Below are positions 14,288 through 14,881 of a stretch of DNA of 64,000 nucleotides, one piece after another; position 1 is the first letter of the stretch; the number at the start of each line of letters is the position of its first letter. The notes beneath the pieces are model-generated. The model was not told the origin of the DNA, made no database searches, and saw nothing but the letters and a program-made list of their open reading frames with translations. The DNA is taken from sequence record PV682554.1; one strand, given 5' to 3'. Origin of the DNA: Escherichia phage 92CQ. A program made the position numbers and the translations under genes.

Positions 14288-14881
14288 TTAAATTTTAAAT
14301 TCTTCATTGTTAAATGAATCCAGTGTACGTACTTCTGGTTCTTTGGGAATGAAAACGTCTTTTACAAAACGGAACATAGGGAAACGTTCTGCCATTTTAC
14401 GGACGTGTGCTTCTTTACCTGTGTATCGGTGATTAATAGTGCAAATATTAGTCTTCAATGCAAATTCAAAATCTGGATGATATACATAGTTTTGACCATC
14501 CCAGTAACACAGGCAGATAGCTACATCAAAGTTCCATACGATTTCACTGCGTACACCTTCTTCCATGATCATAAAGTTAAACTTAAGATCTTTATAGTAT
14601 GCTTCAAATACCCATTTCAAATGTGGTAGTTCGGCATAAGTGTGTTCTGTTTGCTTAGTAAGTTGTTTCACATTACGTGCACCAACACCCAACATCAAAA
14701 ATTTCTCTACTAATACGAGTGTATTGTGGTTAGGCATACGCAAGTAAATGTCAATATCTTGCGCAGGTTTCTCTAATCGCCAATCACGTACAGCGCCGCC
14801 AGCTACAATTGCAAACGGATCTACCAGTTGGCACATACGTAATACTTCTAAAGCGCGTACTTTTTGATCTTCAATATTCAT
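14288..14881 (-). CDS. nucleotidyltransferase (Pol-beta superfamily, CCA-adding/poly(A) polymerase head-like), 197 aa
   Basis: Motif AIVAGGAVRDWRLEKPAQDIDIY matches the GGxVRD...DxD head-domain signature. Confidence 0.55.
   Translation of the reverse strand: MNIEDQKVRALEVLRMCQLVDPFAIVAGGAVRDWRLEKPAQDIDIYLRMPNHNTLVLVEKFLMLGVGARNVKQLTKQTEHTYAELPHLKWVFEAYYKDLKFNFMIMEEGVRSEIVWNFDVAICLCYWDGQNYVYHPDFEFALKTNICTINHRYTGKEAHVRKMAERFPMFRFVKDVFIPKEPEVRTLDSFNNEEFKI

Follow-up and report, generated by a model that had tools for sequence, protein, structure and literature searches.

Escherichia phage 92CQ (sequence record PV682554.1) carries a small gene for a predicted nucleotidyltransferase, here called the NTase, among its genes for DNA replication. 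We analyzed a 64,000-nucleotide stretch of this DNA, referred to below as the window, and the features of the locus are collected in Table 1. The DNA belongs to a phi92-like coliphage of the genus Justusliebigvirus (Stephanstirmvirinae), and the 3.9 kb surrounding the NTase gene are 98-99% identical to phages AV123, KKE7M and phi92. The gene order in the window is primase/helicase, DNA polymerase, NTase and then a gene for a protein like the single-stranded DNA-binding protein (SSB). A first-pass annotation of this DNA had pointed to a minus-strand open reading frame (ORF) of 197 amino acids (aa) with a GGxVRD...DxD motif, directly downstream of a polymerase gene and behind two palindromes. 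All of this was borne out: the stretch that it quoted, AIVAGGAVRDWRLEKPAQDIDIY, is residues 24-46 of the protein, the polymerase gene directly precedes the NTase gene on the same strand, and both palindromes are in the 136-nt spacer between the two genes. Its interpretation found partial support, in that the structural call of a head motif stood. From the sequence evidence described below, we consider it well supported that the protein is an active, untemplated nucleotidyltransferase.

Table 1. Features of the NTase locus. Positions are those of the window.
Feature	Position	Strand	Description and basis
NTase coding sequence, Phi92_gp158 homologue	14288..14881	-	Stand-alone class-II-like nucleotidyltransferase, 197 aa, ATG start
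Ribosome binding site of the NTase gene, AGGAG	14887..14891	-	5 nt before the ATG; read from sequence; identical site annotated in phi92
Motif A, A27-G28-G29-A-V-R32-D33-W34...D42-I-D44	14750..14803	-	Helix-turn binding metal and nucleoside triphosphate (NTP), and two predicted catalytic aspartates
E93, probable third metal-binding carboxylate (h-[DE]-h, strand beta-4)	14603..14605	-	Model secondary structure and Pol-beta motif pattern
C-terminal subdomain, residues ~111-175	14357..14551	-	Degenerate motif B (F118-D119-V-A-I-C), hairpin, helix with K162, R166, F167, P168
Palindrome 2, 8-nt perfect arms, 2-nt loop, in polymerase-NTase spacer	14917..14934	.	Hairpin in minimum free energy (MFE) and centroid folds
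Palindrome 1, 13-nt arms 85% complementary, 10-nt loop, CUUUU after it on the mRNA strand	14955..14990	.	Hairpin in MFE and centroid folds
Family-A DNA polymerase with 3'-5' exonuclease domain, directly upstream	15019..17598	-	phrog_17, E=2.6e-111; in phi92, DNA polymerase I
T7 gp4-type primase/helicase	18094..19866	-	ORF; homologue annotated primase/helicase in phAPEC8 and phi1_175008; neighbor cluster is phrog_239
Sigma-70-like promoter, TTGACA-18-TATTAT with extended -10 TG	14255..14284	-	Consensus match 11/12, best in the region; predicted function
gp157-like 132-aa protein, downstream of NTase	13846..14244	-	Profile matches for two downstream genes: phrog_16560 and phrog_4477
310-aa protein, SSB by annotation in relatives	12897..13829	-	PHROG match

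Profile searches place the protein in a family that already has a name. It matches phrog_1614 ('nucleotidyltransferase', E=2e-34) over its full length (residues 7-193) and phrog_10174, also 'nucleotidyltransferase' (E=2e-26). PF26128.2 is listed for the protein's cluster, P0001, in a precomputed annotation; the papers searched do not mention PF26128. An exhaustive HMMER search of 1.84 billion representative sequences recovered 522 representative relatives at E<=1e-3, 120 of them at E<=1e-10. Almost all are stand-alone proteins of 175-230 aa, a range to which the window protein conforms. In an alignment of 88 relatives with 22-44% identity, G28, G29, D42 and D44 are invariant, and Q6, A27, A30, R32, W34, A40, Y82 and K162 are conserved in at least 90%. 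K162 is kept in 85 of the 88, F167 in 78 and an acidic residue at position 157 in 49. The loss of catalytic aspartates, which the first-pass annotation had named as grounds for giving up the assignment, is not seen. Motif A is far beyond chance. The family is large and putatively phage-restricted. A scan of genome contigs with a degenerate DNA pattern gave mostly GC-rich chance matches among the at least 120 listed; two were real, and both were phage-like.

The alignment also bears on whether the protein might be a binding protein or scaffold that has lost catalysis and retains the fold alone. The third carboxylate is not invariant: the position of E93, which falls in an h[DE]h pattern on the model strand 88-96, is acidic in 61 of the 88 relatives and N in 12, and motifs B and D are degenerate. 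However, invariance of GG and DxD among sequences this divergent is hard to explain without catalysis, and we regard a dead scaffold as highly improbable. Domain fusions were considered as a clue to function and rejected. No known Pfam domain was detected in the longer homologues. In the sole real fusion, found in one marine lineage, the NTase is N-terminally fused to a conserved module of ~85 aa, present once or twice (…AK.LF…ITYEMDD.EYFK.HPNEEYVLV…; loci L027 5665-6564, L037, L039-L041, L047, L049, L052 and L055) and absent from the window. The module matches phrog_17589 (unknown function) alone, with no Pfam or PDB relative.

The fold of the protein is that of the head domain of class-II nucleotidyltransferases. 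G28, G29, R32, D33, D42 and D44 are all present in motif A, which aligns to the GGAVRD...DxD of CCA-adding enzymes as well as poly(A) polymerases (PAP), and the closest folds are those of CCA, CC-adding and A-adding enzymes. Identity to the class-II tRNA nucleotidyltransferases and PAP I (E. coli PcnB, 3AQL; Aquifex aeolicus A-adding enzyme, 4WBY; Bacillus stearothermophilus CCA enzyme, 1MIV; Thermotoga maritima, 3H37) is 12-21%. Whereas these enzymes have ~400-470 aa with a body and a tail, the window protein has 197 aa and neither domain. Both single-sequence and profile searches of PDB sequences recovered motif A alone. We compared the protein with a reference alignment of the head and neck of E. 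coli Cca, PcnB and 17 Cca relatives. In a relaxed hhalign run against the Cca alignment the match was co-linear and weak (157 columns, query 23-189 to Cca 2-166, E=1.5e-4, probability 52%), and past motif A the relationship to Cca is essentially structural. Residues ~111-175, which are confident in the structural model, form a small subdomain that aligns co-linearly with the class-II motifs B-D and first neck helix; the final ~22 residues, up to 197, are of low confidence. The earlier description of a protein without neck and body was nearly right: the body and tail are indeed absent, and the beginning of a neck is there. Neither PF12627 nor PF01966, which Cca relatives carry, was detected in a Pfam scan of the window protein.

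Other small proteins of this general kind have been described. PDB entry 2LA3, from a bacterium, Streptococcus pneumoniae (NP_344798.1), is a stand-alone protein of 191 aa described as a 'CCA-adding enzyme head domain' and of unknown function. It is 9% identical to the window protein, and the PDB sequence searches detected no relationship between the two. Gp22 of Klebsiella phage fHe-Kpn01 and the small 'tRNA nucleotidyltransferases' of Autographiviridae (PMC7291057, PMC7693777) resemble the window protein in being short (~180 aa) and carrying motif A. Like the window protein, Gp22 falls below the threshold of PF01743 (19.2 bits), and its gene adjoins that of a family-A polymerase. Its homology to the window family is distant (hhalign probability 79%, E=1.7e-5, 108 columns) with similar folds in BFVD, but it belongs to a separate sequence family, and its 'FDCNLN' motif is nearer to RRDFTIN. 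Gp22 is toxic when expressed in E. coli, which is the sole experimental datum (PMC7291057), and ~97 of ~550 Autographiviridae carry similar genes between helicase and polymerase (PMC7693777). More generally, the fold recurs in BFVD among numerous phage proteins of 165-215 aa. PHROG 1614 and 10174 (and PF26128, by the precomputed annotation) are the window protein's own family, and the family name is annotation only.

The NTase could also nucleotidylylate a protein or small molecule, or make or consume a nucleotide signal, and so serve as a host-takeover or counter-defense factor. Small Pol-beta enzymes that act in nucleotidylylation and signaling include the minimal nucleotidyltransferase (MNT) antitoxins found in HEPN-MNT modules, aminoglycoside nucleotidyltransferases (ANT) and the lincosamide nucleotidyltransferase LnuA. 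Among the defense-type Pol-beta nucleotidyltransferases, CD-NTase/CBASS, the MNT of HEPN-MNT and MenT/AbiEii were neither a profile match nor the closest fold, and PADLOC gave no match for the window protein. We think a role of this kind rather improbable. Likewise, there was no PF10127 match to suggest RlaP, the Pol-beta nucleotidyltransferase associated with RNA ligase, and no RNA-ligase neighborhood.

We tentatively favor, with slightly more doubt than confidence, an untemplated nucleotidyltransferase of the class-II CCA/poly(A) lineage that has kept the head and a remnant of the neck and acts as a relaxed-specificity adder to RNA 3' ends. In such an enzyme D42, D44 and probably E93 would hold two metal ions, the G28-G29/R32 turn would hold the triphosphate of the NTP, and a nucleoside monophosphate would be moved onto a 3'-OH without a template. 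The class-II ancestry suggests RNA as the substrate. We suppose that one or a few nucleotides could be added to RNA 3' ends during infection, with relaxed specificity, and that as an outcome tRNA-like ends might be repaired or marked, or RNAs tailed for decay. The enzyme would be made together with the replication genes, as the end of the polymerase transcription unit.

Several observations weigh against this proposal of an RNA 3'-end adder, beginning with profiles and motifs. PF01743 (PolyA_pol head) matches residues 26-81 with 19.1 bits against a gathering cut-off of 23 (19.9 bits for cluster P0001), and the NCBIfam CCA models reach 14-15 bits where ~280-290 are required; an assignment to either from sequence alone was rejected. 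The Cca/PcnB reference alignment shows no variation in RRD (motif B) or E-D-P-x-R (motif D), and class-II enzymes keep both, whereas the window family does not. Motif B, 'RRDLTINA', aligns to N117-F-D-V-A-I-C-L, in which the arginines are absent, and position 119 varies among the 88 relatives (D23 P21 S18 G13 A9). There is no ED..R in residues 150-170, a region of low-confidence alignment, and in place of EDxxR the family also conserves H/Y159 and [KR]166-F167-P168. Class-II enzymes use RRD to sense the ribose, rely on EDxxR as a protein template for choosing C and then A, and bind the tRNA elbow with the body and tail. Because RRD is lost and EDxxR is not conserved, neither nucleotide nor sugar specificity can be predicted. 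The chain ends behind the first neck helix, with no RNA-binding body or tail. With the tRNA-measuring body and tail, the ribose sensor and the base-templating motif all missing, the canonical CCA-adding mechanism is unavailable to it. In the literature we found annotation-level mentions only, and no member that had been studied by biochemistry or genetics.

A more specific idea is that the NTase is a minimal CCA- or A-adding tRNA repair enzyme that restores 3' ends trimmed in infection or hit by host defenses, or that raises CCA addition to phage tRNAs. Several GenBank records annotate the NTase in this way, its nearest folds are enzymes of this type, and host Cca was reported to be important for phage infection (Morse and Deutscher 1976, cited in PMC7693777). 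Yet the two motifs that define CCA specificity are not conserved, the elbow-binding domains are missing, and the score of the NCBIfam CCA equivalog is 15 bits against a cut-off of 290.

The genomic association with tRNAs is also poor, which counts against both tRNA repair and the broader proposal. No tRNA genes were found in the window. In a near-identical complete phi92-like genome (L213 8094-11055), all 15 of the tRNA genes encode CCA, and these phi92-type genes are >100 kb from the NTase gene. E. coli possesses a Cca of its own. The family is common in ~45-kb phages, with a related small NTase in Autographiviridae, and 45 of 48 related loci have no tRNA gene within 6 kb of the NTase gene (a count that covers those 6 kb). 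One of the three remaining loci favors repair: on a 148-kb viral contig (L017, 9155-11108), 10 tRNA genes are 2.6 kb downstream of the NTase gene, and nine of them have no encoded CCA. A general linkage to tRNAs was rejected: no more than 3 of the 48 loci show it, and CCA is already encoded in the tRNA genes of the phage itself. On balance, we consider tRNA repair unlikely.

The NTase is a core gene of the genus, with 55 records at >=95% identity, many of them at 100%, and its position behind the polymerase gene is kept in Phapecoctavirus (37% identity) and in Klebsiella relatives (50%). Distant members are also found in Zobellviridae and other Vibrio phages, and a cyanophage member is flanked by DNA polymerase and ribonucleotide reductase (RNR). 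The member in ICP1 (ORF223, L003 3959-4372) is a shortened 137-aa form with the N-terminal head core only. In some ICP1 isolates, two ORFs lie beneath the NTase match, which suggests that the ICP1 gene is truncated or split. Two GenBank records marked UNVERIFIED and labeled as Campylobacter phages with host C. jejuni, MG065645.1 ('A145'; loci L211-L213) and MG065650.1 ('B15'), contain an NTase gene 99% identical to that of Justusliebigvirus and Phapecoctavirus coliphages. Mislabeling of the host, or contamination, is the probable explanation.

The genomic signal is dominated by linkage to DNA replication genes and not to RNA-repair genes, which also weighs against an RNA 3'-end adder. For 80 related loci taken from IMG/VR we predicted ORFs and clustered every neighbor, and the NTases fell into 42 independent groups (<60% identity). 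Recurrent neighbors include a T7 gp4-type primase/helicase (phrog_239) in 23 groups, a family-A polymerase (phrog_17) in 20, HNH homing endonucleases in 13, a FEN-type exonuclease in 8, and a second polymerase family and an ATP-dependent DNA ligase in 6 each. Enrichment was evaluated with a Poisson-binomial test on same-strand genes in the 32 groups with contigs of >=40 kb. A primase/helicase or polymerase gene is within 6 kb in 20 of 32 lineages (<=6.3 expected, P=5.6e-8) and within 1 kb in 13 (3.5 expected, P=1e-5). DNA ligase, the only ligase family among the neighbors, is at the level of chance (5 observed, 5.2 expected), and no RNA-ligase cluster recurs among the neighbors of the 42 groups. 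Genes for the gp157-like and SSB-like proteins were rejected as obligate partners, their linkage being confined to Stephanstirmvirinae (4 of 42 groups).

This linkage raises the possibility that the NTase is an accessory of a T7-type replisome (family-A polymerase and gp4-like primase/helicase) that acts on DNA 3' ends or RNA primers, for instance by extending or capping primers or ends without a template, or supplies a nucleotide-linked intermediate to DNA modification. The arrangement of the genes can be intimate. The NTase gene overlaps the PolA stop codon in L080 and in fHe-Kpn01 (Gp22), and in L089 it is stop/start-coupled to the primase/helicase gene. In L071 (4639-8899), a family-A polymerase gene is split into ORFs of 162, 408 and 202 aa, with the NTase gene located between the first two of them. 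RNR adjoins the NTase in PA-SR01 and L188. Loss of RRD, the sensor of the ribose 2'-OH, would be compatible with use of deoxynucleoside triphosphates, and the BASEL authors float DNA modification for a replication-linked NTase in Gordonclarkvirinae (PMC11990801). However, unrelated host-takeover genes are also housed in replication modules (gene map, PMC7693777), and T7 manages without an NTase. We judge this accessory role to be about as unlikely as tRNA repair. A stronger form, in which the whole family is a dedicated T7-type replisome accessory and not an RNA enzyme, with a head-only class-II transferase, its motifs for ribose and base selection lost, acting on primer or DNA 3' ends or feeding a replication-coupled nucleotide or DNA-modification step, strikes us as more doubtful still. 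If true, a replisome accessory would explain the position of the NTase between primase/helicase, polymerase and SSB in dozens of phage lineages unrelated to one another.

Whatever its substrate, the NTase gene probably closes the polymerase transcription unit, as we infer from a strong promoter directly after its stop codon. This sigma-70-like sequence occupies the 43-nt gap between the NTase stop codon and the gp157-like gene. The spacer region that contains the palindromes does not stand out in its folding (z=-1.57; of 200 shuffles, 15 fold equally well), and a terminator scan did not report palindrome 1 as a terminator. It is possibly a weak attenuator or a processing site between the polymerase and NTase genes. 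An Rfam scan of the window gave no match. Terminator-like GC-rich hairpins with T-runs are present at boundaries of gene blocks at 11685-11708 (+), 12855-12874 (-) and 17667-17684 (+); the first separates the convergent gene for a 933-aa tail protein from the minus-strand replication block.

The replication block itself differs between relatives. The polymerase gene in the window has 2580 nt (859 aa), and those of phi92, UAB_1 and 'cardinal' have 3315 nt (1104 aa; phi92, L001 5219-8533), with an in-frame insertion of ~735 nt. The insertion is absent from the window, and the match between the window and phi92 splits into two pieces; other records have a 'DNA polymerase, part I'. The insertion looks like an intein or homing element. 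In phi92, two glycosyltransferase genes (gp163 and gp164, L001 11084-12635) are directly upstream of the primase/helicase gene, and the minus-strand replication block with these glycosyltransferases comprises primase/helicase, polymerase, NTase, SSB-like protein and a DNA methyltransferase.

At the level of annotation the finding is already known, because there are identical deposited proteins, named PHROG and Pfam families, and stand-alone head domains in the PDB and the phage literature, and the sequence record gains nothing new from the window. RefSeq calls the identical protein 'nucleotidyltransferase' and others call it 'putative tRNA nucleotidyl transferase/poly(A) polymerase'. What we add is motif-by-motif evidence that the protein cannot be a canonical CCA enzyme, a count of the family's members, and a measure, taken over independent lineages, of its linkage to T7-type replication genes. 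Head-only relatives of CCA enzymes are core or frequent genes in phi92-like, phAPEC8-like, KP34-like, phiKMV-like and Fri1-like phages and in ICP1, which include therapeutic and model groups. The statistically strong linkage to polymerase and primase/helicase leads to a concrete and cheaply testable hypothesis, and a defined substrate would fill the recurring 'nucleotidyltransferase' gap in phage annotation. The toxicity of one relative in E. coli could lead to a mechanism of host shutoff or RNA turnover.
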